Translations under genes and position numbers: made by a program
Shown: positions 7,096-21,683 of the stretch, piece after piece
Layout of the letters: every line of letters begins with the position of its first letter
How positions within the stretch are numbered: the first letter of the stretch is position 1
From: Ferruginibacter sp.
GTDB lineage: Bacteria > Bacteroidota > Bacteroidia > Chitinophagales > Chitinophagaceae
Assembly: GCA_031380515.1 (NCBI GenBank)
Contig: JANNGD010000156.1
Location: forward strand, 24,677-48,676
Direction: 5' to 3'
Length of the DNA: 24,000 nt
Notes under the pieces: generated by a model
Seen by the model: only the letters and a program-made list of their open reading frames with translations
Told to the model about the DNA's origin: nothing
The model's database searches: none

Positions 7096-8751
7096 TTAAA
7101 AACTTGCATTTAAACTAAGCGTAAGGCCTGCGCTTTGTGGTACGAACCTACAAATACCTCCAACACAAACTAACCCCCCTCGCTGCCTGCCGTAGCTAGC
7201 TTGAGCCCTATAAGCAGCTTTGTTGTATGAAGCGCCAAAGTTATAATAATGTAATCTAGCATCTTTATTGCTATTGCCGTAGTTGTATAAATCTTGCGCA
7301 AATACTGACCATACTGAGCTAAAATTATATTCAATTAAAGAAGCTGCCCAATTTTTAAAGCCGCCTTGTGCCCACTGGTGTTGCAGCTCCCACCTAATTG
7401 ATTTTGATTTTTTTAACTTCAGTGTATTTTCAATTACTGCTGTATTGGCATTTACTTCTCCAGTAGATTCTTCTACATACCTCGCATTGTAATACTGGTT
7501 AAGATAAGTAAATACGGAGGTCCATTTTTTATCCCATTTTTTCCGAATTTCCAGGCTTATATCCCTATAATATTTCTGGCCAAAACCAAATTTAATAGCT
7601 CGGTACTTCCTTTGAAAAGCATCGTACCTTCCTTTAAGACCATGCCATTGAGCATAATTTAAAGAAATATTTGTTCCATATTTTCCACCCAATGGGGTTT
7701 CTTTTTTAAACTTATAAAATAAGTCTACTTGCCCACCAATCTCACCTGCTTTATTACGATCTGGTTCAAAACTAAGATTTGGTTGGGCGGGATACACATA
7801 TATGTTTGTGAGGCTATAATCGAATTGCTTTGTTAATGCAGGCACATAATTTAAAGAACCTTCATTGTACACATTGCCCGATTTATTTCTTTCGGCATAA
7901 AAGCTAAAGTTTTCTAGTCTACGAAGGTTGGTTGTTATTCCAAATCCATTTTTTGTATACCCAAGATTAAGTAAATAAGCATCACCATCAAACTGCAAAG
8001 CTGGCCTAATGGTATTAAATTCTACCAATGCATCTTTTGATTTAAAAGCGTATTCAAAGTCGGCTTTAAACCCATCAACTGAAAAATCGCTTCTCACAGA
8101 TGTGAGTAAGGTATTACTTTTAAGATCGGTAAATACTTTATCGTTTTCATTTCTATTAACAATACTACCCCCAATTCCAAATTTAATTTTTTTTACTTTC
8201 AAAAGATCGGAAAGTTTTGCATCTACATTTAAACCTCCAATTGTGCCATCGCTAAAATTAAAACCCAAGCCACTACGCTGTTTCCCGTACAATGCAGTAA
8301 TTTGTACAGATTCCACTGGAGCATATTTAACCATGCCTCCCACAATGGAATTAACAATGCCCAACTGCCTGTCCTCCCAACTTCGAAACACTAATCCGCT
8401 ACCGAACTGTCCGTAAAAGTGACCAGCAGTAGCATCCAACCCTATTTTATCGTTTCTGTAATTGATATAGTAATTTGCAAGATTTGTTTTTTTCAACAAA
8501 GGCGAATAATTAAGCAAGGCTTTGGGTTCGTAAGATTCAAACTGAACACCTGTTGTAAATTTCTTCAATTTATAATCTAACCTCAAATAATTATTAGAGC
8601 GGATTCTATTTTCAGCATCTATTTGTTCTAATTTTATTTTTGCATCATCAATATATAAAGCAGAATTGGATTCTAAGCTTCCGCTTAGCTGTGCTTTTGA
8701 ATAAATAGAAAAAAGTGTAAAACTTATAATAAGCAATATTTTTTGTTGCAT
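7096..8751 (-). CDS. Outer-membrane beta-barrel protein, DUF6029-like
   Basis: Signal peptide (MQQKILLIISFTLFSIYSKAQ), alternating beta-strand composition rich in G/Y/N, and a C-terminal ..SLNASF with terminal Phe typical of OM barrels. As I recall, DUF6029 proteins sit next to TlpA-like and Omp28-related genes; not verified. Confidence 0.7.
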   Translation of the reverse strand: MQQKILLIISFTLFSIYSKAQLSGSLESNSALYIDDAKIKLEQIDAENRIRSNNYLRLDYKLKKFTTGVQFESYEPKALLNYSPLLKKTNLANYYINYRNDKIGLDATAGHFYGQFGSGLVFRSWEDRQLGIVNSIVGGMVKYAPVESVQITALYGKQRSGLGFNFSDGTIGGLNVDAKLSDLLKVKKIKFGIGGSIVNRNENDKVFTDLKSNTLLTSVRSDFSVDGFKADFEYAFKSKDALVEFNTIRPALQFDGDAYLLNLGYTKNGFGITTNLRRLENFSFYAERNKSGNVYNEGSLNYVPALTKQFDYSLTNIYVYPAQPNLSFEPDRNKAGEIGGQVDLFYKFKKETPLGGKYGTNISLNYAQWHGLKGRYDAFQRKYRAIKFGFGQKYYRDISLEIRKKWDKKWTSVFTYLNQYYNARYVEESTGEVNANTAVIENTLKLKKSKSIRWELQHQWAQGGFKNWAASLIEYNFSSVWSVFAQDLYNYGNSNKDARLHYYNFGASYNKAAYRAQASYGRQRGGLVCVGGICRFVPQSAGLTLSLNASF

Positions 8752-8754
8752 GGT

Positions 8755-9246
8755 CTATTGATTTTCCTTAATAATTTTATAGATTATATTCTCATCGCCT
8801 GCTACATACCCTTGATGCCGGTAGATTATTTCTCCATTTTTAATAATTATACTATAAGGTACATTGGCAATATTTAATTCTCTTTTAAGGTCTTGGTTTT
8901 TATCAAGCAATACATTGAATTCCCAACCTTTTCCTTTTACAAGTGGGTTTACTCTTCCAGCGGTTCTGCTGTCATCTTCTGATATGGCATACAAATCAAA
9001 TTTTGTGCTTTTATTCCAGTCTTCTAAATTGTCATCAGTTGCAGTTAATTCGTTTATGCAAGGAATGCACCAAGTAGCCCAAAATAATAAAACGATAAGC
9101 TTACCTCCTTTTTCATTAAATTTTTCTGTTTGAAAGTTTACCCCATCCAATGTTGCCAGTTTGACATTAGGTATTTTTTGTGCCATAACACCTGATTGAA
9201 AAGCACAGAACAATAAAAGGATACTAAACGATTTGTACATAGCCAT
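8755..9246 (-). CDS. TlpA/ResA-like periplasmic thiol:disulfide oxidoreductase (thioredoxin fold)
   Basis: Signal peptide and active-site block LLFWATWCIPCINEL (CxxC). 163 aa. TAG stop 3 nt before the next ATG. Confidence 0.88.
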   Translation of the reverse strand: MAMYKSFSILLLFCAFQSGVMAQKIPNVKLATLDGVNFQTEKFNEKGGKLIVLLFWATWCIPCINELTATDDNLEDWNKSTKFDLYAISEDDSRTAGRVNPLVKGKGWEFNVLLDKNQDLKRELNIANVPYSIIIKNGEIIYRHQGYVAGDENIIYKIIKENQ

Positions 9247-9263
9247 GACTTATTTTTAATAAT

Positions 9264-9290
9264 AGACTTTGTTTTTTTTCAATCCTTACA
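9264..9290 (-). promoter_or_regulatory. Candidate ECF-type promoter for the TlpA-like operon (TGTAAGG-N13-AAAGTCT, minus strand)
   Basis: Minus-strand reading is TGTAAGG attgaaaaaaaac AAAGTCT, ending 17 nt before the TlpA-like ATG (9246). The -35-like half is one arm of the 9280..9309 palindrome. The -10-like half matches the CCCGACT sites only at G, C and T. Confidence 0.35.
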
Positions 9291-9309
9291 AAAAAATTTG
9301 TAAGGATTG
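9280..9309. promoter_or_regulatory. Perfect 13-bp-arm palindrome in the divergent TlpA-like/Omp28-like promoter region
   Basis: caatccttacaaa-aaaa-tttgtaaggattg: 13/13 complementary arms with a 4-nt loop. It is centred between two diverging start codons (9246 and 9344), so it cannot be a terminator. It carries TGTAAGG on both strands. Confidence 0.8.
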
Positions 9310-9325
9310 AAAATTTGCACCGTCC
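9299..9325 (+). promoter_or_regulatory. Candidate ECF-type promoter for the Omp28-related gene (TGTAAGG-N13-ACCGTCC)
   Basis: Plus-strand TGTAAGG attgaaaatttgc ACCGTCC, ending 18 nt before the ATG at 9344. CGTC is the classical ECF -10 core. Spacing is the same as at the other three sites. Confidence 0.4.
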
Positions 9326-9343
9326 ATAAATAAAAACTCAATT

Positions 9344-10384
9344 ATGAAAAAATTTATGATCTTGGCCTTTCTTATTGGAAGTGCCATCCTTTTTAATTCC
9401 TGCACAAAGACAGAATCGGAGTTTACTGATACTCCACAAGAGGCTATTACTGTAAAAGCTAGTACCTTAAGTATCATTTCTGGTAATACAGTAACTTTTT
9501 TGGTACAGTCATCTGTAAACAACCACAATGTAACTGCTAGTAGTAAAATTTATGTAAATGGTTCTTTAATCACTGGCAATAGTTATACTTTTAGTGTGGA
9601 AGGTAATTTTGCTGTATATGCTACATATGGCCAATTAACATCTGCCGTAATTACTGTAAATGTTGCGCCATTACCTGCCACAACAATGTATAAACACAAT
9701 GTGTTGGTAGAAGAATATTCTGGCACATGGTGTGGAAACTGCCCAAGAATATTATATGGTGTAGATTTATTGGAACAACAAACAACAAAGGCAATAATAG
9801 TAAGTACACATTTATTTGGTAGTGACCCATTTATTTCAACAGATGGAAATAGTTTGGCTGCACAACAGGGAGTAGGAGGGGTACCAAATGGTTTTATAAA
9901 TAGAACCTTAAGTTGGATTGCGCCTCAGTATCAAAATGTAAACCAAGTAATCAATACAATCCAGGCTTCTGCTTCAGTTGGCTTGGCAATAAATTCAGCA
10001 GTAAGTGGCAACAACTTATCGGTAAATATAAAAGCTAATTATTCCCAACCTTTATCGGGTTCTGCAAAACTTACTGTGTATTTGGTAGAAGATAAATTGT
10101 ACCATACGCAAAGTAATTATTCATCTAATCTTTATGGAGGACTTTCCAGTATTCCAAACTTTGAATACAATGGCGTTCTTCGAAAAATAATTAGCCCAAT
10201 AAGTGGTGATAATATTTCAATATCAGGAAACAACAATAACAAAGATTATTCATTGGTATTGCCTAGTAATATATCTAATATTTCAAATGCAAGAATAGTT
10301 GCTTTTGTTACCAATGCTGCTGGAATGGTAGTGAATGCATTAGAAGCAAAAGTGGGAGTTGCAAAAACTTTCGAAACAATATAA
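9344..10384 (+). CDS. Omp28-related outer-membrane lipoprotein with thioredoxin-like CxxC motif
   Basis: Lipoprotein signal (..AILFNSC), an N-terminal Ig-like segment, then the family block VLVEEYSGTWCGNCPR. This is the only convincing plus-strand gene in the window. Confidence 0.8.
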   Translation: MKKFMILAFLIGSAILFNSCTKTESEFTDTPQEAITVKASTLSIISGNTVTFLVQSSVNNHNVTASSKIYVNGSLITGNSYTFSVEGNFAVYATYGQLTSAVITVNVAPLPATTMYKHNVLVEEYSGTWCGNCPRILYGVDLLEQQTTKAIIVSTHLFGSDPFISTDGNSLAAQQGVGGVPNGFINRTLSWIAPQYQNVNQVINTIQASASVGLAINSAVSGNNLSVNIKANYSQPLSGSAKLTVYLVEDKLYHTQSNYSSNLYGGLSSIPNFEYNGVLRKIISPISGDNISISGNNNNKDYSLVLPSNISNISNARIVAFVTNAAGMVVNALEAKVGVAKTFETI

Positions 10385-10537
10385 TTGTTTAATATCCTTT
10401 ATTTAGGGCTTGCTCAAAAACTATAAATTGCTACCTGTGTTTTATTTCGGTTAATTGTTTTGCTAACTGATGCGCTGGTTTTTTATTAAATAGTTCAAAA
10501 AACTTGCAGACATTTTTTCGATTGTCGTTTTTGCCTC

Positions 10538-10668: not shown

Positions 10669-10799
10669 CCGAACAAAAAAAGGCAGCTTATGCAGTAGCT
10701 GGTAGATTTTTGCGAAGATTTTATCGAATAAAGTTTCTAATGATTAGTACCTAAATTCCAAATATTGTTGCTTAAGTTTTTAAGCAAGTCCTATTTAAA

Positions 10800-11966: not shown

Positions 11967-12551
11967 TTATTTAATAACCCAAACACTTTTTTCTAGTATT
12001 ATAGATAACACAGATGCAATACCTATTAAAACAGCTATACATTTATGCAATAAAGTACTTCCAACTTTCTTTACAGATATGTATATTAATAAAGCACAAA
12101 ATACAAATAATAATATTTGCTGTAACCATGTTTTTTCTAGCAGATAAACATTGAATAGTATAGATATTAAAACGGCAATGCCTACAATAAGAAATATTAT
12201 TGGATAGTGGCTGTGGTAATATATTTTCATATCTGAGCCTTTATCGCTTTCATTTGTAGGCAACAGCATTTTTACTGCTATAAAAAGAGTAATAGGATAA
12301 AGCAATATAAACAATAGTGCTGGTAGTGTCCACACAGTTTTATCTTTTAACTGGTAGGTTATAAACCAATCCTGCACATGCAGAAAGAGTATAAACAGTA
12401 CCCATAAAGTATGTGGCCAGTAAAATTTTATTTCTTTATAATGGTATAGTAAATCAGAGAACGAAGAAAGTATTTGTGTAATACCCAATCCTAAAATAAT
12501 GGAAACTAATATGGACACATATTCGAAGGCGCTTATCTGGTTACTAAACAT
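11967..12551 (-). CDS. Polytopic membrane protein (about 5-6 TM), unknown function
   Basis: 194 aa, almost entirely hydrophobic helices. The ATG overlaps the CoaB stop by 8 nt (ATGTTTAG), so translational coupling is likely. Confidence 0.7.
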   Translation of the reverse strand: MFSNQISAFEYVSILVSIILGLGITQILSSFSDLLYHYKEIKFYWPHTLWVLFILFLHVQDWFITYQLKDKTVWTLPALLFILLYPITLFIAVKMLLPTNESDKGSDMKIYYHSHYPIIFLIVGIAVLISILFNVYLLEKTWLQQILLFVFCALLIYISVKKVGSTLLHKCIAVLIGIASVLSIILEKSVWVIK

Positions 12552-13260
12552 AATTCAAACGCTTTTTATTTGTTGCTATAGGCAAAGTAGGCTGCAACTT
12601 AGTTATGAGATGATGTACAATATCAACAGCTACCAGTGACTTTAATTTCAGTTCATAATCAGTAATACCAAGTTGGCTATCAATTAATTTTATCCTGTTC
12701 GTATCAAAGCCAAATCCACTTCCATTGCTGTCTTGTATATTTAATACTACAAAATCAAATTTTTTGCGTTGCATTTTACTAATAGCATTGGGCAACCCAT
12801 TTTCGGTTTCCAAAGCAAATCCTACAAATATTTGTCCCGATTTTTTTGTTTTAGACAATTCAAAAGCAATATCAGGATTGGGCACAAGGCTGATATGTAT
12901 TTCGCCTTCCTGTTTTTTTATTTTTTGATTGGCAACAACCGCACATTTATAATCGGCCACTGCTGCTGAAAAAATTATTACGTCAGCATCAGTTGCCATA
13001 TATTGGGCTACTTCCAGCATTTCATCTGCAGTAACCACATTGGTAATTTGCTCAGCAACCAGCGTTGTTTTAATGTTTACAGGGCCAGAAACAACATGCA
13101 CATCTGCACCAAGGCTATGCAAATATTCGGCAATGGCATAGCCCATTTTTCCGGTGGAATGATTGGAAATAAAACGCACAGGGTCTATTGCCTCACGGGT
13201 AGGTCCTGCAGTAATGATAACCCTTTTTGATTTTAACTCGGTGTTGGAAAATTGTTCCAT
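12544..13260 (-). CDS. coaB: Stand-alone phosphopantothenate-cysteine ligase domain protein (CoaB; no CoaC half)
   Basis: KRVIITAGPTREAIDPVRFISNHSTGKMGYAIAE, SAAVADYK, QKIKKQ and VGFALET are collinear with the C-terminal (CoaB) half of E. coli Dfp/CoaBC as I recall it. The ORF starts only ~12 aa before the ITAGPT block. Stop is TAG followed by TAA. Confidence 0.88.
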   Translation of the reverse strand: MEQFSNTELKSKRVIITAGPTREAIDPVRFISNHSTGKMGYAIAEYLHSLGADVHVVSGPVNIKTTLVAEQITNVVTADEMLEVAQYMATDADVIIFSAAVADYKCAVVANQKIKKQEGEIHISLVPNPDIAFELSKTKKSGQIFVGFALETENGLPNAISKMQRKKFDFVVLNIQDSNGSGFGFDTNRIKLIDSQLGITDYELKLKSLVAVDIVHHLITKLQPTLPIATNKKRLNYV

Positions 13261-13268
13261 TAATTTGC

Positions 13269-13508
13269 TTATTGATATTGATTGAATAATTTAATTTTAA
13301 ATTTCTCCTGTACTATATCAAAGTATTTAGCTTTGTTAGTTGTCTTCTCTTTTACAGACAGATACATTGATATAAAAAATGTTGCCAATAAAGTAGATAC
13401 AATCTTTATTAAAATTGAGGTAGTCAACCTTTTTTTCAAGAAAGCATTCCACTTGGCAAACACAGCAAAAAAGCTACTTTTCGCAATCGGTGCTACAAAT
13501 ACTTTCAC
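13269..13508 (-). CDS. Possible small single-TM protein (79 aa), hypothetical
   Basis: ATG-initiated ORF filling the NRDE-CoaB gap almost exactly (13 nt and 8 nt spacers). One hydrophobic helix (ILIKIVSTLLATFFISMYL). The sequence is AT-rich and a plus-strand ORF overlaps it, so coding status is uncertain. Confidence 0.35.
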   Translation of the reverse strand: MKVFVAPIAKSSFFAVFAKWNAFLKKRLTTSILIKIVSTLLATFFISMYLSVKEKTTNKAKYFDIVQEKFKIKLFNQYQ

Positions 13509-13521
13509 AACATTTTTTTGT

Positions 13522-14286
13522 TTAATTATTTTGCATCGGGTTTATTTTTAAATGACCAGGTATTAAACAATCATTCAATTTGCTTTGTAAATCAATTTTT
13601 GTACTGCTGTAGCTGTAATTTGAAAAATCATAATAGCTCATGGCTGCATTGTGATGGCTTATTTCAATGAATGAAAAACTGAGTGTCTTTGTTATTTCGT
13701 TTCTGTTTATCATAAATCCATTTTCATTATCAACATGTGATTTAAAAAAATTGAGTAATGATAGTTTTGAAACGGGAGGGTTCATTGCCATCCAATTTTG
13801 AAACAAATCTTCCCTTTTTGTCTTTGCATCAGCATCATATAAAGTAGATGATGACCATATATGTGGCAATGTTTCATCTAACCGTATTCTGTGTCGTTCC
13901 ATGCCATCCCACACCAGTTGAAACAAATTATTATCACTCCATACTATTAAGGTAAATGGTTCAATGTCTTCCAAATCAATCAAATTCCATTCTACCACCG
14001 GCATTTCCGAGACGAGCAATTCCGACACAATAATGCCCCTGCTTTTTCTGTAATAATTTTTACGCTGGTGATTTTCAAAACCACCGTTCAATAAAACGAT
14101 AACGTTGCCGGTATTGTTTACACCAACCCAAGTTCCACCCGCCATTGGGTCTTTGGGAGATAAATAGGATATTCCATTTAATTCACTTATTGCTGGCTTT
14201 ACAGCTCTTGGTCTTTTAGGACTTTCATCCCTCAATGAACTAATAAAAACGCCATCATTACTGGGTATAAAAATTACGGTACACAT
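13522..14286 (-). CDS. NRDE / TANGO2 family protein (N-terminal Cys, Ntn-hydrolase-like)
   Basis: Starts MCTVIFIP, followed by SSLRDESPKRP (NRDE-motif position) and GGTWVGV. These are collinear with human TANGO2 MCIIFFKF..AANRDEFYSRP..GGTWLGI as I recall it. Confidence 0.85.
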   Translation of the reverse strand: MCTVIFIPSNDGVFISSLRDESPKRPRAVKPAISELNGISYLSPKDPMAGGTWVGVNNTGNVIVLLNGGFENHQRKNYYRKSRGIIVSELLVSEMPVVEWNLIDLEDIEPFTLIVWSDNNLFQLVWDGMERHRIRLDETLPHIWSSSTLYDADAKTKREDLFQNWMAMNPPVSKLSLLNFFKSHVDNENGFMINRNEITKTLSFSFIEISHHNAAMSYYDFSNYSYSSTKIDLQSKLNDCLIPGHLKINPMQNN

Positions 14287-14306: not shown

Positions 14307-14930
14307 TTAAAACCCAATCCTGGTTCCTATCAAAAAAGAAAATGCTTTTGGTCTGCTATCCTGCACCTTAATATTGGCAGACCAGTAAGATGCATCTACA
14401 TATATTGTTTGCAATATTTTTGATGTAGTACTATAGGCAAGTCTTGAACCTGCTCTTCCAAATATTCCCTGCATTCTGGTTACCTGCTGGTTAATGATAC
14501 CATTTACATTATCTACCATAAGCCGTGGCTCTCCAATATTTGCATAGCCTGCGCCAAAATATGGTGATACAAATAATCTTCTGGAGTTGCTTAAGGCGAT
14601 ATTTCTGCCAATATTTATGCCTGCTAAAAAAACAGAACTGCTGGTTCTTTGAAAAAGATAAGCAGAACTTGCATCTTTTACCTGCTGGCTGTACTTTACA
14701 GCATTAAAGTCCAAAACAAATTGTGCAAAATAATGCTTGCTGAACTTATATTCGATGCCTGAATTTAATGCCAGCGAATTTTTATAAGCATTTGCGAACG
14801 AAGACACCGGGTTGAGCAACCCCACCGCAGTAGTAAAAAATATTTTTGATGTATCCTGTGCTTTTACAGATGTACAAAAACAAATAAAGAGCAGTGGCAA
14901 TAATAACCTGTAATCGATTAATTTTTTCAT
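14307..14930 (-). CDS. Small outer-membrane beta-barrel (porin-family) protein
   Basis: Signal peptide (..FCTSVKAQD), alternating beta-strand pattern and a C-terminal ..IGTRIGF with terminal Phe. Confidence 0.75.
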   Translation of the reverse strand: MKKLIDYRLLLPLLFICFCTSVKAQDTSKIFFTTAVGLLNPVSSFANAYKNSLALNSGIEYKFSKHYFAQFVLDFNAVKYSQQVKDASSAYLFQRTSSSVFLAGINIGRNIALSNSRRLFVSPYFGAGYANIGEPRLMVDNVNGIINQQVTRMQGIFGRAGSRLAYSTTSKILQTIYVDASYWSANIKVQDSRPKAFSFLIGTRIGF

Positions 14931-14931
14931 T

Positions 14932-15432
14932 TTAAGATTTAGCTAATGAAGCCTGATATTTGATGGTGGAATAAGCCATGCCAAAATCGTTATCAACAAT
15001 ATCGAGTTTCATTTCAATAATGGCTACTTTTATTAAGGCAAGGTGATGTATCGTATGTTCGGTATTATAAACCATTTCCCTGTAATAGGTAGTAGTTACG
15101 TTTGTTAATTCAATGGAGCCTTCTATCTGCTCCACAGTAAGTTTTAATTGCCTATCGGGAACTATTATAAGCCCATCCATTTGCTGCAGTACAACCTCTG
15201 CAAACACACGGTCGGTTTCTAGCAGCAGGTTTCTTTTTCGATTTACATAATCTACCTCTCCGGTGCTATATCCATCAATGGCGCATTGCAACAGTTCAAT
15301 CACATGCCTTGTGTGCCCTCCAATGCTTGAATTGCCAAGGTGTGCTACTTTTTGATTGTATTGCTCATCGGTAAGGCGCTGTAAAAGTTTACTAAGTGAT
15401 TGTAATTGCTGAGATAATTGCAGAAATATCAT
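14932..15432 (-). CDS. DinB-fold (DinB_2-like) metal-binding protein
   Basis: 166 aa helical protein with a His-triad-type pattern (GGHTRHVIELL .. NTEHTIHHLALIK). Its stop lies 1 nt before the next start. Confidence 0.75.
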   Translation of the reverse strand: MIFLQLSQQLQSLSKLLQRLTDEQYNQKVAHLGNSSIGGHTRHVIELLQCAIDGYSTGEVDYVNRKRNLLLETDRVFAEVVLQQMDGLIIVPDRQLKLTVEQIEGSIELTNVTTTYYREMVYNTEHTIHHLALIKVAIIEMKLDIVDNDFGMAYSTIKYQASLAKS

Positions 15433-15453: not shown

Positions 15454-15879
15454 TTAATTAAGTGAGTGCGTAATTTTGTTTTTTCTAACCCTGTTTAGAA
15501 ATAGAATTGCTTGATGCTTATACAGTAGCATTATTACTGCACAACAAATCCAAACAACAATTGCCAGCATAAATAATTGCCCACCATCGCCCTTAGATTC
15601 TATGCCAATAACGGTAAAATGGGAAAGTATAGCGCCAGACATTAGGCCAAACCCCAAAAAGGCACCAATAAATACGGTGGATGGAATGAGGAGTAGAACA
15701 CTGGCAATTAATTCTATAACCCCTGTTCCAATTCTACCCCAGGGTTCCACCCCCAATTTGGTGAATAGTTCTACGGATTCTGGATGGCCAGTAAATTTAA
15801 AATACAGTGTTTGTAGAAGAATGATGGCAGCTACTATTCTAAGTACCAAACCGACGATAGTTTTTAAGTTGAATGACAT
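15454..15879 (-). CDS. DoxX family membrane protein
   Basis: 141 aa, 4 TM. Typical LRIVAAIILLQTLYFKFTGHPESVELFTKLGVEPWGRIGTGVIELIASVLLLIP pattern. Confidence 0.85.
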   Translation of the reverse strand: MSFNLKTIVGLVLRIVAAIILLQTLYFKFTGHPESVELFTKLGVEPWGRIGTGVIELIASVLLLIPSTVFIGAFLGFGLMSGAILSHFTVIGIESKGDGGQLFMLAIVVWICCAVIMLLYKHQAILFLNRVRKNKITHSLN

Positions 15880-16013: not shown

Positions 16014-16454
16014 TCATTTATTAAGTTTCGGCCAGTAACCATCTGCTGCTTTAATACGGCTGACGGTATCTTTTATCCAAAGCTGTTTTACATCCAAGTT
16101 ATAATTCAAATAAAGTTTACCACCTGCAATTGTCCAGGCTTTTGGGTCGGTGGGAGACAAGTGGTTTTCGCTGGCGCCATAAGCACAAAAACCTCCATAC
16201 TGTGGTACATATTTTTCTGGGGCTGTTTTAAAGCTGTCTAAATTATTTTGACTTACAAATTTCCATTTGCTCCCACTCCACTCAGTAGTGTATTTGTCAG
16301 TTCCTTCTACAGCATTTTGCTGATTGAAATATGCTACCGGGTCGTAGCCTTTAATAGCCACTCCATTTTTACCGCTGTACTTTATTGACTGTGCAAACAA
16401 GCCTGCGGAAAGTAGTACTGCAAAGCATGTAATAACTGCTGTTTTCATCTTCAT
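16014..16454 (-). CDS. Secreted YHS-domain protein (paralog of 4995..5465)
   Basis: Signal peptide. Blocks GYDPVAYF, PQYGGFCAYGAS and GKLYLNY. TGA stop. Confidence 0.85.
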   Translation of the reverse strand: MKMKTAVITCFAVLLSAGLFAQSIKYSGKNGVAIKGYDPVAYFNQQNAVEGTDKYTTEWSGSKWKFVSQNNLDSFKTAPEKYVPQYGGFCAYGASENHLSPTDPKAWTIAGGKLYLNYNLDVKQLWIKDTVSRIKAADGYWPKLNK

Positions 16455-16489: not shown

Positions 16490-16514
16490 AAAAATGCCAT
16501 CAATTACGATGGCA
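16490..16514 (-). terminator. Rho-independent terminator downstream of the AraC-family gene
   Basis: Minus-strand tgccatc-gtaatt-gatggca followed by TTTTT, 40 nt after the stop at 16554. Confidence 0.6.
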
Positions 16515-16553: not shown

Positions 16554-17408
16554 TTATTTATCGGGCCTCACTATTTTTTTAAGTTCAGAAGGATTTTGAG
16601 ATGTGCAGTTTTTGAAGAACTTACTGAAATGCGCCACTTCATCAAAGCCCAGTATATCTGCTATTTCTTTTACTGATTTATCGGTGTAATAGAATAGCCG
16701 TTTGGCTTCTGCAACAATTCTTTCCTGTATTACCAGTGTGGGCGTTTTTTTGCTGTATAAAGAAAATATATTGGAAATTGTTTTGGGGGATTTATTGAGC
16801 AGCCCTGCATAAAACTGAACCTGGTGCTCTTTTCTGTAATGGATTTCTACCAGTAAATTGAATTGCCTAATGAGATTGAATTTTTCGCTATAAGCAGCCT
16901 CAGTACCCAGGTATTGTTTTTTGGCAAGCCGGGTAATTTGTATAATGAGGCGTACCAATAACATGCGGAGCATTTCAGCTTTTATATCTTCATCAGACAA
17001 AAATTCTTCAACAAAAACATCCAGCAAACGGTTCATTACTTCAATATGTTCTTCTTGCAATTTTATAAACAAAGTGGGTGAAGGCCCATAAAATACAAAA
17101 CCTACACAGCCTACTTCTACATCATGATTAACAATGCAGTAAAACTCCCGGTTAAACTGCCACAAAACTATATCTGCAGGATTTTGAAACCTGAAAGACT
17201 GGCTCACCATAACAGGTAATACATGGTTTGCACCAAAAACATATTCCACTTCATCAATAGTTACCACTTGTTGAGCGCCCCTGTTCCATGCAATGGTATA
17301 CAGCTTGCTGTCAATATTTGGTTCACTAAAATATCGCTGAAGATTTTCTTCTTCCGTTTTTAAAATAAGTTGCCCAGCATCTTGTTTATTCTTAAATATG
17401 TATTCCAT
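16554..17408 (-). CDS. AraC family transcriptional regulator
   Basis: C-terminal double HTH (..YAGLLNKSPKTISNIFS .. VKEIADILGFDEVAHFSKFFKNCTSQNPSE). The N-terminal sensor domain has YTIAWNRG and a C-x9-C pair (CIVNHDVEVGC). Confidence 0.9.
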   Translation of the reverse strand: MEYIFKNKQDAGQLILKTEEENLQRYFSEPNIDSKLYTIAWNRGAQQVVTIDEVEYVFGANHVLPVMVSQSFRFQNPADIVLWQFNREFYCIVNHDVEVGCVGFVFYGPSPTLFIKLQEEHIEVMNRLLDVFVEEFLSDEDIKAEMLRMLLVRLIIQITRLAKKQYLGTEAAYSEKFNLIRQFNLLVEIHYRKEHQVQFYAGLLNKSPKTISNIFSLYSKKTPTLVIQERIVAEAKRLFYYTDKSVKEIADILGFDEVAHFSKFFKNCTSQNPSELKKIVRPDK

Positions 17409-17548: not shown

Positions 17549-18430
17549 TTAAGCCGATCCTCTACCAAAACCAACCGTTTCTCGGTACAACTGCGGCGAT
17601 ACATCTGAATTTACTTTAAAAAAACGGCTGAAATAATATTCATCTTCATAACCTAACTCATAAGCAATTTCTTTCACCGTTTTGTCTGTCAGATACAATT
17701 CTCTTTTTGCTTCAATGATGATGCGTTCGTTTATGAGACTACTAAGTGTTTTATTAAAATGTGTTTTTGTGATTTTTGCCAAAGCCTTTGTAGAAATATT
17801 TAATGTGCTGGCATAGTCACTTGCAGAATGTTTTGTTTTAAAATCTTTTTCAATAGCATCTTTAAGGTTTTGCAAAATGAAGGGCTGCTTTACGTTTTTT
17901 TGTGCCAATATTAATTCCGGCTGCTGTTCTGATTTTAACCTAGATGCGGATATTAAAAATATTTTGAGGTAAGATACCAGCAGCTCGTACTGTGCCAATG
18001 CTGGGTTTTGCATTTCAATTTTCATCTGCTCCAGCAGAATATTTAATGTGGCAGACGAAGCATCGTCAATGCTGATGAACGGTGGTTGATAAATATTATT
18101 AAACAATACGCCATTGCAAGCCACTTCTGCTTGGTGCTTGTGTATGCAAAAAAAATCGGGATGAAATTGCAATGCTAATCCTTCCATATTTTCATCGGGC
18201 AAAAACATAAAGGGCTGATAAGGCGAAAATGCAAACAACGTATTTTGTATAAAATCATATTCTAAAAAATCTGCTTTTACTTTTCCCTTTCCTTCTTTTA
18301 TCTAAATAAGAGAGTAATAATTGTTGCGTTGTAAATGGTCAAAATAAGCATTGTTATCAAATGAGAATAGTTTGAAAGCAAGGTTGCCATTTTGAGGATT
18401 GATGAGTGTGAAAGTATTTTGCTGCTTCAT
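17549..18430 (-). pseudogene. AraC family regulator interrupted by one in-frame TAG (codon 43) at a conserved Trp position
   Basis: The ATG at 18430 opens MKQQNTFTLINPQNGNLAFKLFSFDNNAYFDHLQRNNYYSLI-TAG-IKEGKGKVKADFLEYDFIQNTLFAFSPYQ.., in frame with ORF 17549..18238. TAG is at 18302..18304. The tandem paralog has YTIAWNRG where this gene has YSLI*IKEG, which points to TGG>TAG. The C-terminal AraC HTH is intact. Confidence 0.8.
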
Positions 18431-18441
18431 TCTAAATTATA

Positions 18442-18855
18442 TTATTTCAATGTACGTTCATTTTCTTCAATGGCTACATCATTAATACTGGCAAACCTTT
18501 TCTGCATATATCCATCTTCATCAAATTCCCATAATTCATTTCCATAACTGCGATACCACTGTCCCGTATGGTCATGCCATTCATATTCAAACCGCACTGC
18601 CATCCTGTTTTCTCTAAAGCCCCACAGCTCTTTTTTTAATTTGTAATTTAATTCCTTTTCCCACTTTCTTTTCAGGAATTGTTTTACTTCTTCCCTGCCG
18701 TTGATAAAGTCGGTGCGGTTTCTCCACTCCGTATCAATGGTATAAGCCAGGCAAACTTTCTCAGGGTCTTTGGTATTCCAGGCATCTTCTGCCATTTGAA
18801 CTTTTTGTAAAGCCGTTTCCATTGTAAACGGAGGAAGCGGGTGTCGCTGTTCCAT
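18442..18855 (-). CDS. DUF1348 / NTF2-like (SnoaL-fold) protein
   Basis: 137 aa: [27 protein letters not shown] .. [22 protein letters not shown] .. WEFDEDGYM. This is the pattern I recall for DUF1348. Confidence 0.8.
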
Positions 18856-18927
18856 ACTGTGTTTTTTTTAGTTTTACTAAAGCAGCAAAGCCAGACGATT
18901 AGCCTGGCTATACTGAAAGTTTTTATT

Positions 18928-19479
18928 TTAATTTGCTAATGAAGCATTTTCCAACGCAGGAGCAAGTGGAAAATCAACCGGCACCTGTGTAAGATTGTGC
19001 AGGTAGTTCATCGCTGTTTTATCACTTACCTGCAGCACCACATCTACCAGGCTTTCGTTGGTATAACCCTGTGCAAAAAAAGCATCTACCAAATCAGCAT
19101 TTGCATTGCCACGGTTTTTCGTAATGGCTTCTGCCAATTGCACCAGTGCATTTAACTTGATGTCGTTGGCTTTCCCGCTGCGTATATCCAGTATTTCATC
19201 ATCGCTAAAACCATTCATTTTGCCAATTACGGTGTGGGCACTTTGGCAATATACACATTTGTTTACCTGGCTCACAATTAGGTTAACGGCTTCTTTTTCT
19301 TTATTGCTCAACGTTGTTTTTGCATTTTGATAAGCCAAATAACGACCTAAGCCATTTTCAGAATAAGCAATGGTTGCATAAAGGTTTGGCACAAAACCCA
19401 ATGCTTTGTTTAATGTGTCGAAAATAGCTTGGTTGGCTGGTGCAACTTCTTCTCTTGTTGGAACGGTGAAACTTTTCAT
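18928..19479 (-). CDS. Carboxymuconolactone decarboxylase / AhpD-like alkylhydroperoxidase family protein
   Basis: AhpD-type CxxC..H block (NKCVYCQSAH). I place the start at the ATG at 19479 (MKSFTVPTREEV), preceded by an A-rich leader. The longer track ORF begins at a TTG and adds non-homologous sequence. Confidence 0.8.
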   Translation of the reverse strand: MKSFTVPTREEVAPANQAIFDTLNKALGFVPNLYATIAYSENGLGRYLAYQNAKTTLSNKEKEAVNLIVSQVNKCVYCQSAHTVIGKMNGFSDDEILDIRSGKANDIKLNALVQLAEAITKNRGNANADLVDAFFAQGYTNESLVDVVLQVSDKTAMNYLHNLTQVPVDFPLAPALENASLAN

Positions 19480-19639
19480 TTTTTTATTTTTTAGATGATT
19501 TAATTTTTTGTCGTTTTGACTATGCAAAGATGAACCAATATTAAATCCTATAAAATGGAGAATCAACGCTATGTGATGGATAATTTTCCCCTGGTGGAAA
19601 ATGTTGCTTTTACTGCGAGTTGGTATCAAATAATATTTT

Positions 19640-20188
19640 CTAAACCCTTACCAATCTTATATCAATTTCCCGATCCACATACTTCCATTCTTCGGTGCTA
19701 CGAAGGGCCGCTACCAGTTCTTCAAAAGCATCGCCGTGTTCAGGAGCGTACTCAAACCAGGTAAGAAAATCGAATGGCTCAGCAATATCACGGCAGTGAT
19801 AGAGTTTACGGGCTATTGCCGGTAAGTATTTTAAACCCGTTTGTTTATGATGCGATTTGTTTTCAAATATTTTTCTTCTTTCATCCTGTGCAAGGTTCCA
19901 CCAGGTTTCATTTTTTCTTATTGGTATAAGTGCTGCACAAGTAGCCGCTGACCTGCCAAGCCCAGCCTGTATTGCAAGCAACTTTTCTTTTTCTTCTTTT
20001 TCTGCATAGCGTACATTGCTTACCAATCCTTTGATTGTCCAAAGGTCTTCATTGTTTTTTTGGAAGTTACTGTTTGTAATTTTTAAATAAGGGGCTGCTT
20101 CAATGGGTTCGCCAATAACGGTTTCCATTTTTACTATTCTCCATTCTCCTGCATTGCAGCCAATAAAATCAAAAATATGGTCTGTCAT
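19640..20188 (-). CDS. cld: Chlorite dismutase family protein, short (about 180 aa) clade
   Basis: Collinear over its full length with the short Nitrobacter-type Cld as I recall it (AALIPIRK..WW..QDERR.IFE.KSHH..LKYLPAIAR.LYHCRDI.EPFDFLTWFEYAPEH..EEW.YV.RE.DIRL). Proximal His (KSHH) and distal Arg (PAIAR) are present. The TAG stop falls at the homologous C-terminus. Confidence 0.85.
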   Translation of the reverse strand: MTDHIFDFIGCNAGEWRIVKMETVIGEPIEAAPYLKITNSNFQKNNEDLWTIKGLVSNVRYAEKEEKEKLLAIQAGLGRSAATCAALIPIRKNETWWNLAQDERRKIFENKSHHKQTGLKYLPAIARKLYHCRDIAEPFDFLTWFEYAPEHGDAFEELVAALRSTEEWKYVDREIDIRLVRV

Positions 20189-20226
20189 ATATTTCTCTTT
20201 GAAAATTATTAAAGGAGATTTTTATA

Positions 20227-20589
20227 TTAGCTAAAGAACTTTTTCGGCACTGTATAATCGCTGATAACCCAAGTAGCAAATACCGCCACTGCAAACACCA
20301 AATAAAATATTTTTGATACACTGCCATCTATGCTGCCTAGATAAAATGCAAGTGGAACCAATACAATGGAGACCAGCAATTCAATACGGCCATGAATATT
20401 TAACGGAACAATTTTTATTATCCCATACTTAAAATTGGTAAACATGGTTAATAGAAAATGTACGCCGCCAATAGCGTAAGTAAACCAGCTTGTATAAGCC
20501 GGCAAATTAAATAGGTACGGCGATAGCCACTAAAAAGCCACCACGATATAATCTATAATTCCATGCTGTTTTGAGTTTAAAATTTTCAT
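20227..20589 (-). pseudogene. Small multi-TM membrane protein (SPW-repeat-like?) interrupted by one in-frame TAG at codon 20
   Basis: ATG at 20589: MKILNSKQHGIIDYIVVAF-TAG-WLSPYLFNLPAYTSWFTYAIGG.., in frame with ORF 20227..20505, which the track starts at a TTG. TAG is at 20530..20532. The hydrophobic helix continues across the stop. Confidence 0.65.
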
Positions 20590-20729
20590 GTCAAAATAAT
20601 CTAATTGTAAATAAAGAAAAATAAAGTTGTCTTTAAACGAGATTGTGTATCGTCAGTTTAATACAGCAGCATTATTCATTCCTGTTTATTTACTTATACA
20701 TGGATAAAGTAAAATCCTTACAATTTCCC

Positions 20730-21683
20730 TTAACTATTTTTAAACTTCACTACAGACTGTCGTTCCCGATTAATAGTAAGCTGTGTAATATCTGGTCGGG
20801 AGTAGTGGCCGGAAACATCAAGGTTTTGTCTTTCTTCATACACCCGGTTAATATCAAGAGTTTCAATTATTAACCCTTCTGTGTGTACAACAGGTGCTAC
20901 AATCCATTGGCCATCTGGTCCGGCAATGCAGGAGCCGCCATCGGCCAGAACTGCCGGGGCATTTTGCAAAATTTCTTTTAAATGTGCTGTATCAGCAGGA
21001 AAATCTTCCATAAGCATTAAGCTGGAAACAGACAATACAAACGACCTTGATTCCTTTGCAATAAAACGGGTAATATCTTCAGTGTTATGTTTTGAGCCAG
21101 GCCACACCGCCACATGCAGATTTTCTCCCATGCCATACAAAGCCATACGTGGCAGTGGCATCCAGTTTTCCCAACAATTTAATCCTCCCACGGTAAATTC
21201 TTTTAAAGGATGTACCTGCAAACCATTACCGTCTCCCGGCGACCATGTTAGTCGCTCTTCATAAGTTGGTTGCAGCTTTCGGTGAACAGATTTTATTTCA
21301 CCCTCCTGATTGATATAAACCAAGGAACAATACAGGCTGTGGCCGCCACGGTCTTGCGCCCTTTCAATCAACCCAAGGTAAATAGCAATATCATTTTCTT
21401 TTGCCAACAAACAGATACTGTTTAAATCACCTGCTTCTATCTGTATCGCATTCCTGATATAGTGTGCATGAATTTCTTTCTGCATGCTATTATTAAATGA
21501 GGCACCATTGGTAAGCGATAACCAGAACGGATAGCCCGGCAGCAAGCCTTCTCCAAAAACAATCAAATTACATTGCTGTTTGCCTGCATCTTCAATATAA
21601 GATTTTACTTTTTCAATGGTTTTAGCTTTATCTAACCATACCGGTGCGATTTGGGCAAGGGCGACTTTTAGTAAATTATTCAT
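20730..21683 (-). CDS. Nitrilase (carbon-nitrogen hydrolase superfamily, branch 1-like)
   Basis: Glu-Lys-Cys triad blocks VFGEGLLPGYPFW, VHRKLQPTYEERL and GGLNCWENWMPL. 317 aa. Confidence 0.9.
   Translation of the reverse strand: MNNLLKVALAQIAPVWLDKAKTIEKVKSYIEDAGKQQCNLIVFGEGLLPGYPFWLSLTNGASFNNSMQKEIHAHYIRNAIQIEAGDLNSICLLAKENDIAIYLGLIERAQDRGGHSLYCSLVYINQEGEIKSVHRKLQPTYEERLTWSPGDGNGLQVHPLKEFTVGGLNCWENWMPLPRMALYGMGENLHVAVWPGSKHNTEDITRFIAKESRSFVLSVSSLMLMEDFPADTAHLKEILQNAPAVLADGGSCIAGPDGQWIVAPVVHTEGLIIETLDINRVYEERQNLDVSGHYSRPDITQLTINRERQSVVKFKNS

Follow-up and report, generated by a model that had tools for sequence, protein, structure and literature searches.

Background

TANGO2, whose loss causes severe human disease, has a disputed molecular function, with heme trafficking, binding of acyl-coenzyme A (acyl-CoA) and a hydrolase role all having been put forward, and we know of no activity for any NRDE protein. 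Bacterial homologs of TANGO2 have been studied as heme-trafficking proteins (PMC10470608), purified human TANGO2 was found to bind acyl-CoA via its NRDE motif, with no acyltransferase activity reported (PMC11867700), and vitamin B5 rescues models of TANGO2 deficiency (bioRxiv 10.1101/2022.11.04.514597). Gene neighborhoods in bacteria offer one of few independent ways of forming a hypothesis on what TANGO2 does. The window analyzed here is a stretch of 24,000 nucleotides (nt) from Ferruginibacter sp. (assembly GCA_031380515.1, contig JANNGD010000156.1, positions 24,677 to 48,676), in which a gene of the NRDE/TANGO2 family is followed on the minus strand by a gene for a predicted standalone phosphopantothenate-cysteine ligase, here called CoaB2. 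An initial annotation of the window, whose account of the literature on TANGO2, CoA and vitamin B5 was accurate (bioRxiv 10.1101/2022.11.04.514597; PMC11867700), had taken this adjacency, if conserved, as possible evidence for a connection of TANGO2 with CoA metabolism. We consider it fairly probable that CoaB2 is a dedicated extra ligase in a stress-type operon of NRDE and ATP-grasp proteins, and not the direct enzymatic partner of NRDE.

Results

Gene neighborhoods of NRDE genes

The initial annotation raised the possibility that NRDE genes adjoin DFP/CoaB genes more often than by chance. In a phylum sample of 401 Bacteroidota species, matches to PF05742 were present in 134 genomes and fell into two score classes, a canonical one (180-268 bits, full model coverage) and a divergent one (37-70 bits), to which both NRDE copies of the window's genome belong. 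Regions of about 20 kb were fetched around 36 divergent and 40 canonical matches, with about 57 canonical-type matches left out, and were searched with the window's proteins and with the bifunctional CoaBC of the same genome. A DFP/CoaB gene was found within 10 kb at none of the 36 divergent and none of the 40 canonical NRDE loci of other Bacteroidota species, which does not bear this possibility out. Sensitivity was not the cause, since the DFP query finds CoaBC sequences as distant as those of G373 (49-53% identity). The canonical loci shared no cluster genes, their best common neighbor occurring in 13 of 40 loci and none of the common neighbors being a CoA gene. In addition, a search of 400 further genomes of the Chitinophagaceae, the family of the window's genome, yielded no other close CoaB2, and no NRDE-DFP fusion was seen among longer homologs, a search that is weak evidence.

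Other partners were found repeatedly with the divergent NRDE subfamily, which sits in an operon with DinB_2 and ATP-grasp genes, whereas the canonical TANGO2 subfamily has no such operon. At 19 NRDE loci of relatives (the window's own excluded), an ATP-grasp gene lay within 1.5 kb in 15 and a DinB gene in 14. Among the 36 divergent loci of the phylum sample, genes within 5 kb encoded DinB_2 (21 loci), ATP-grasp (19), YHS (15) and DoxX (14) proteins. Furthermore, contig C19 of the window's genome (L078:2420-4630) carries another DinB_2-NRDE-ATP-grasp cluster, a minimal one that lacks YHS, DoxX, CoaB2 and the two accessory membrane genes. The core genes that recur across the Bacteroidota encode DinB_2, NRDE and an ATP-grasp ligase anchored in the membrane, and DoxX and YHS often accompany them. 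The partnership of NRDE with the ligase is pointed to firmly because the two are sometimes fused: four database proteins (P0241-P0244, 558-602 amino acids (aa)) are NRDE::ATP-grasp fusions, and in P0241, for instance, residues 1-223 align with NRDE and residues 247-583 with the ATP-grasp protein.

The predicted structure of the window's ATP-grasp protein (mean predicted local distance difference test score, pLDDT, 91.9) has two N-terminal helices and, as modeled, the fold of amino-acid carboxylate ligases. Its best Foldseek matches were cyanophycin synthetase, the glutathione synthetase half of GshAB and D-Ala-D-Ala ligase (E 1e-9 to 1e-11), and its matches to RimK and GshAB at the sequence level are weak. 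In one Bacteroidota genome (L063:6917-9238), a 773-aa open frame has the ATP-grasp region as its C-terminal part (residues 432-758). The closest relative sampled (L006/L077, G014:C50) has one in-frame TGA in its NRDE match. The gene for the 194-aa membrane protein comes next, and neither an ATP-grasp gene nor CoaB2 turned up within 10 kb of NRDE in L077; this cluster may be decaying.

Occurrence of CoaB2

Among database proteins, the relatives of CoaB2 at 55-91% identity were without exception standalone, one being a 141-aa fragment and the others 194-243 aa long; the first CoaBC proteins appear at about 54% identity. In all seven contigs of GTDB species that carry close relatives (L025-L030 and L035), CoaB2 lies within the same operon. 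NRDE is located immediately 5' of it in five of the seven (L025, L027, L028, L030 and L035), and this adjacency is kept in these five related metagenome-assembled genomes (MAGs) down to 54% NRDE and 56% CoaB identity. In L026 and L029, CoaB2 comes directly after a gene for a barrel-like protein, with no NRDE gene inside 10 kb; the sole NRDE gene of each of these genomes is part of a separate, minimal cluster of the DoxX-DinB-NRDE-ATP-grasp type. In G441 and G442, NRDE is in a minimal cluster, and an expanded cluster carries CoaB2 without NRDE. CoaB2 joined the operon in a few lineages and persists where NRDE is missing. Its absence from the 76 surveyed NRDE loci, together with its retention in operons that lack NRDE, makes it a recurrent but optional add-on and not an NRDE-specific partner, and it is probably not the direct enzymatic partner of NRDE. 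The CoaB2 of L035, a Flavihumibacter MAG (10001-10521), aligns in two pieces in different frames, with a longest open frame of 171 aa, for which a frameshift, decay to a pseudogene or faulty assembly could account.

More distant standalone CoaB genes also occur near NRDE clusters. In a Spirochaetota MAG (L031, 10775-19502), a co-directional array holds CoaB2 four genes 5' of DinB, in the order CoaB2, Pyr_redox_2 oxidoreductase, 4Fe-4S membrane protein, GNAT protein (Acetyltransf_5), DinB, NRDE and ligase. The genes after NRDE encode a VTT::ATP-grasp fusion (N-terminal VTT, DedA-type), an alpha/beta hydrolase, an adenylate/guanylate cyclase and DoxX. The Acetyltransf_5 family includes amino-acid-lipid N-acyltransferases. 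A metagenome scan with P0214 gave four usable loci (L130-L133), one of which (L133) contains YHS, DinB, NRDE and ATP-grasp genes, then four genes, then CoaB2; the related loci L130-L132 showed no cluster genes within 8 kb. In L031 and L133, CoaB2 is 3-4 kb from the NRDE cluster. We estimate that in a genome of 4 Mb a randomly chosen gene is no more than 5 kb away from a given cluster in about 0.25% of cases, and two cluster-linked cases among about nine more distant standalone CoaB loci, a small and non-random sample, are unlikely to have arisen by chance. In addition, NRDE and CoaB matches on contigs of equal size (for example P0028 and P0133, 1,787 nt; P0036 and P0158, 4,584 nt) suggest, indirectly, more co-located pairs. 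The idea that the adjacency is unique to this genome or lineage, which the initial annotation had named as grounds for abandoning its proposal, is largely borne out for the NRDE family as a whole by the counts (0 of 76 loci and 0 of 400 genomes), although the pairing is not a one-off: it is conserved in a small Ferruginibacter-like group only, and recurs in the two contigs L031 and L133.

Standalone CoaB genes were also seen in other settings. Two Chitinophagaceae genomes (L143 in G815 and L144 in G664) have standalone CoaB proteins of 226-232 aa at 51-52% identity, with neighbors encoding a short-chain dehydrogenase, an approximately 555-aa protein and two or three YHS proteins, and with no NRDE or ATP-grasp gene nearby. 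In one Bacteroidota genome (L128, G373:C1), CoaC (183 aa) and CoaB (217 aa) are separate genes about 120 nt apart and form the only DFP match of the genome.

CoaB2 as a predicted ligase isozyme

CoaB2 reads, from its sequence, as a true phosphopantothenate-cysteine ligase isozyme. It covers the whole PF04127 profile (216 bits, profile positions 1-186 of 186), whereas its match to TIGR00521 (197 bits, cutoff 219.7) is limited to model positions 177-391, as expected because CoaB2 lacks the CoaC half. It aligns over its full length with PDB entries 5int and 1u7u and retains the motifs G-P-T-x-E, D-P-V-R, S-N-x-S-x-G-K-M-G, A-A-V-A-D-Y and K-I-K-K. Residues N33 and K113-I-K-K116 match the corresponding positions in 1u7u and 5int; presumably N33 is equivalent to N210 and the lysine of the K-x-K-K motif to K289 of E. 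coli CoaB, with their catalytic roles.

In the C-terminal domains of 42 CoaBC proteins, 77 columns were at least 90% conserved, and 60 of these were equally conserved in 83 standalone sequences, which also retain every motif column that is invariant in the 42. In a search for a specificity switch, no column was fixed in the 83 standalone sequences to a residue that is rare in the 42 CoaBC sequences. With the motifs intact and no standalone-specific column, nothing points to an altered substrate for CoaB2. A quick maximum-likelihood search placed 87 standalone sequences in one group apart from the CoaBC sequences compared, with the Spirochaetota copy inside it (Shimodaira-Hasegawa-like approximate likelihood ratio test, SH-aLRT, 84), in a tree built from the best matches to the query, whose sampling is therefore biased towards it.

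CoaB2 is not the CoA-pathway enzyme of the genome, in the sense of a single essential copy, since the genome (5.13 Mb, 249 contigs) has a complete bifunctional CoaBC on contig C76 (408-aa open frame), the C-terminal half of which is 46% identical to CoaB2, which makes CoaB2 an extra copy. The four other genomes with cluster-linked CoaB2 that were checked each have another DFP gene as well. A DFP match was found in 388 of the 401 Bacteroidota species, and among the matches listed nearly all were single, with an open frame of about 400 aa; in five other NRDE-bearing genomes with apparently two DFP matches, the second was noise of 20-23 bits on another contig. Compared with the bacterial CoaBC proteins of known structure (E. 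coli 1u7u; 5int; Mycobacterium 4qji and 6tgv), CoaB2 aligns over its full length with all motifs kept, but it is a standalone protein of 238 aa without the CoaC half, an extra copy in a separate clade and a member of an accessory operon.

The NRDE protein

The assignment of the NRDE protein to the TANGO2/NRDE family is supported by a profile match above the cutoff, by the Met-Cys start with the motif residues, and by an Ntn-type (N-terminal nucleophile) fold in a predicted model. The protein starts with MCTVIF and carries LRDE at residues 18-21 and GGTW at residues 50-53, and its PF05742 match (46 bits, cutoff 22.6) spans residues 14-149 only. In an alignment of 36 NRDE sequences, M1, C2, R19, D20, E21, R25, G51, W53, N67, S82, R83, G84 and S203 were invariant, and the first residue of the NRDE motif was Leu in the window's lineage and Asn in most other sequences. 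The window's lineage thus has LRDE instead of NRDE when set beside human TANGO2 and the bacterial comparators Chromobacterium CV2077 (PDB 3gvz) and Shewanella HtpA (PMC10470608).

The profile of the family (A1) matches the human TANGO2 structures 9bwa and 8sv7 (E 1.7e-13). An AlphaFold model of the NRDE protein (pLDDT 92.8) gave 8sv7, 9bwa and 3gvz as the top Foldseek matches (E 4e-11 to 1e-8), with a TM-score of about 0.65-0.71 to 8sv7 and 9bwa, and the protein, as modeled, has the TANGO2-type alpha-beta-beta-alpha Ntn fold. The PF05742 match and the fold are common to the window's protein and human TANGO2, but identity over the structural alignment is 15-16%. The next structural matches were acyl-CoA:isopenicillin-N acyltransferase, penicillin V acylase, bile salt hydrolases and NAAA. 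These Cys-Ntn amidases and acyltransferases (PDB 2x1d for the first of them), which act on acyl-amide bonds by cleavage or transfer, share the fold and the Cys at the mature N-terminus with the NRDE protein, but the NRDE protein has no precursor peptide beyond Met1, and sequence identity is 8-14%. It has been proposed that Cys2 is the nucleophile of TANGO2 (PMC12359130), which agrees with the matches of the NRDE model.

Architecture and boundaries of the array

The array consists of eight co-directional, closely packed genes on the minus strand, encoding YHS, DoxX, DinB_2, barrel-like, NRDE, CoaB2, membrane and ATP-grasp proteins (Table 1). The YHS-DoxX gap is 134 nt. Starting from DoxX, successive genes are 21, 1, 20 and 261 nt apart, followed by an overlap of 8 nt and a gap of 3 nt. 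The overlap between CoaB2 and the 194-aa membrane gene suggests translational coupling.

Table 1. Features of the array and its borders, in the direction of transcription (positions in the window)
Feature	Position	Strand	Evidence and remarks
AraC-type regulator (HTH_18)	16554-17408	-	Pfam PF12833, 60 bits; 5' of the array
Terminator-like hairpin in the AraC/YHS interval	16495-16514	-	8-bp stem, 4 G-C pairs, T-run; consensus scan only
YHS-domain protein, secreted, first gene of the array	16014-16454	-	Pfam PF04945, 30.8 bits
DoxX-family membrane protein	15454-15879	-	Pfam PF13564 and PF07681
DinB_2-superfamily protein	14932-15432	-	Pfam PF12867, 25.1 bits (cutoff 24.8)
207-aa protein with signal peptide and C-terminal Phe; lineage-specific accessory	14307-14930	-	Open reading frame; no family match
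NRDE/TANGO2-family protein, divergent bacterial subfamily, 254 aa	13522-14286	-	Pfam PF05742
Non-coding spacer containing an unconserved 79-codon open reading frame	13261-13521	-	Frame broken or segment absent in relatives
CoaB2, standalone DFP C-terminal domain, 238 aa	12544-13260	-	Pfam PF04127, 216 bits
194-aa multi-pass membrane protein, accessory	11967-12551	-	Open reading frame; no family match; 8-nt overlap with CoaB2
Membrane-anchored ATP-grasp amide ligase, 353 aa	10902-11963	-	Weak RimK and CPS-like NCBIfam matches; fold by model
Terminator-like hairpin 3' of the ATP-grasp gene	10684-10701	-	Consensus scan only

Two terminator-like hairpins, found by consensus scan only, lie on either side of the interval that YHS opens and the ATP-grasp gene closes, and the downstream one is the likely end of the operon. 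The AraC-type gene, which is kept 5' of the cluster in L025, L027, L028, L068, L077 and L079, is probably on a separate transcript. A scan for sigma-70 promoters gave no more sites than in shuffled sequence, with a consensus that may not suit the Bacteroidota, and an Rfam search over the array and spacer gave nothing credible, the sole match being rli40 (21 bits, gathering score 100). The 207-aa protein is, judging from its sequence, probably an outer-membrane barrel; its homologs were found in close relatives only (L025-L029, L035, L058 and L079), and those of the 194-aa membrane protein in L025-L029, L035, L068 and L077.

The initial annotation described three open reading frames, for NRDE, a 79-aa product and CoaB, with spacers of 13 nt (13509-13521) and 8 nt (13261-13268). 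This layout is correct as a list of frames, but the 79-codon frame (13269-13508, minus strand, GTG start) is not taken for a gene here. The flanking proteins of the Ferruginibacter MAG L025 are 95-96% identical, yet indels break the frame there and leave fragments of 21-27 aa; no intact equivalent is present in L035, and in L027 and L028 the entire segment of about 230 nt is missing, so that NRDE and CoaB are spaced by about 54 nt. Pfam and NCBIfam searches gave no family match for the product, and Rfam gave no RNA family in the NRDE-CoaB2 spacer. The frame is thus probably not a gene, and because it is unconserved, NRDE and CoaB2 are better seen as parted by a non-coding spacer of 261 nt.

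Directly 3' of the operon (7096-10384) are genes for DUF6029 (551 aa), AhpC/TSA thioredoxin-like (163 aa) and Omp28-family (346 aa) proteins, which hold the same position in L025, L026, L027 and L035. The 5' side (17549-21683) has a redox or detoxification flavor, with genes for a second AraC-type regulator, DUF1348, CMD (AhpD-like), a chlorite-dismutase-family protein and a CN-hydrolase. The redox-type genes around the operon include AhpC/TSA, CMD and, in addition, a gene for an extracytoplasmic function (ECF) sigma factor.

Discussion

The distribution of CoaB2 fits best with an extra ligase that was added to an operon whose frequent core is DinB_2, NRDE and an ATP-grasp protein. We propose that NRDE and the ligase may make and unmake, or transfer, an amide-linked compound at the membrane, and that this chemistry would be part of a response to redox or thiol stress. 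Such a setting is suggested by DinB_2, DoxX and YHS in the array and by the AhpC/TSA, AhpD-like and ECF sigma factor genes nearby. When the operon is switched on, CoaB2 would most likely make more phosphopantothenoylcysteine available, and with it more CoA or pantetheine-type thiol. E. coli Gss (glutathionylspermidine synthetase/amidase) is a thiol-metabolism enzyme in which an ATP-dependent amide ligase is joined with a cysteine-nucleophile amidase. By analogy, the NRDE-ligase pair might follow the same logic of ligase plus Cys-amidase, but the amidase of Gss has a CHAP fold and not an Ntn fold, and there is no sequence relationship. The protein families are already known, but no published description of the operon with a dedicated CoaB paralog inside it was found: a literature search found no paper that treats TANGO2 together with ATP-grasp, and one on DUF833 and CoaB paralogs found nothing relevant.

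Several observations weigh against this proposal. Family names (DinB_2, DoxX, YHS and AhpC/TSA) are the basis for the proposed stress role, and the Pfam score of DinB_2 is barely over its cutoff. About 40% of the divergent NRDE loci have no ATP-grasp or DinB gene detectable within 10 kb with the window's proteins as queries, so that the core is frequent and not universal. In addition, a mere boost of CoA supply gives no obvious reason for the presence of CoaB2 in three operon arrangements, and the support for a standalone CoaB clade is moderate, coming from a quick tree with query-biased sampling.

It is also conceivable, although we regard it as unlikely, that a duplicated or transferred CoaB isozyme landed by chance in the operon of one ancestor and has been kept by descent, as a neutral hitch-hiker. 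CoaB2 is rare, being present in one of the 134 NRDE-bearing genomes of the phylum sample and having no further close copy in the 400 family genomes; it carries no clade-specific substitutions, and the copy in L035 looks frameshifted. Furthermore, other standalone CoaB genes lie in unrelated contexts (L130-L132, G815 and G664, with the split CoaC and CoaB of G373). However, a chance landing does not readily account for a pairing found in three arrangements, namely adjacent to NRDE in the Chitinophagaceae, in the Spirochaetota MAG and in L133, when by our own estimate for a 4-Mb genome a random gene would so rarely lie within 5 kb of the cluster. The 8-nt overlap of CoaB2 with the next gene, which suggests coupled translation, likewise weighs against it.

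Alternatively, NRDE/TANGO2 proteins, human TANGO2 included, might act directly on a CoA-pathway intermediate or acyl-CoA, so that the NRDE-CoaB adjacency would reflect the coupling of two enzymes. The adjacency kept in five related MAGs, the recurrence of CoaB2-type genes with NRDE arrays in the Spirochaetota MAG and L133, the presence of acyl-CoA:isopenicillin-N acyltransferase among the structural matches of NRDE and the binding of acyl-CoA by human TANGO2 through the NRDE motif (PMC11867700) are consistent with this idea. We nevertheless think it quite improbable, as a DFP gene was found within 10 kb at none of the 76 other NRDE loci, the canonical subfamily (180-268 bits) has neither such a context nor any strongly conserved neighbor, and CoaB2 is retained in operons without NRDE (L026 and L029). 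The lack of NRDE-DFP fusions among longer homologs points the same way, as weak evidence. Very doubtful, finally, is a variant in which the product of CoaB2 (free phosphopantothenoylcysteine, or cysteine on a related carboxylate) would be built and trimmed by the ligase and NRDE into an amide-linked thiol or lipid conjugate, and in which NRDE/TANGO2 proteins, as pantetheine-type or acyl-CoA-type amidases or acyltransferases, would explain the vitamin B5 link.

Conclusions

The initial expectation that gene context would give evidence for a TANGO2-CoA link stands in part, because the tie of CoaB2 to the operon lends that link weak support, but this tie is not specifically one between NRDE and CoaB. 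The broader survey guards against over-reading a single NRDE-CoaB adjacency. The context points firmly to the association of a TANGO2-like Cys-Ntn protein with an ATP-dependent amide ligase and, through the optional CoaB2, weakly to coenzyme A.

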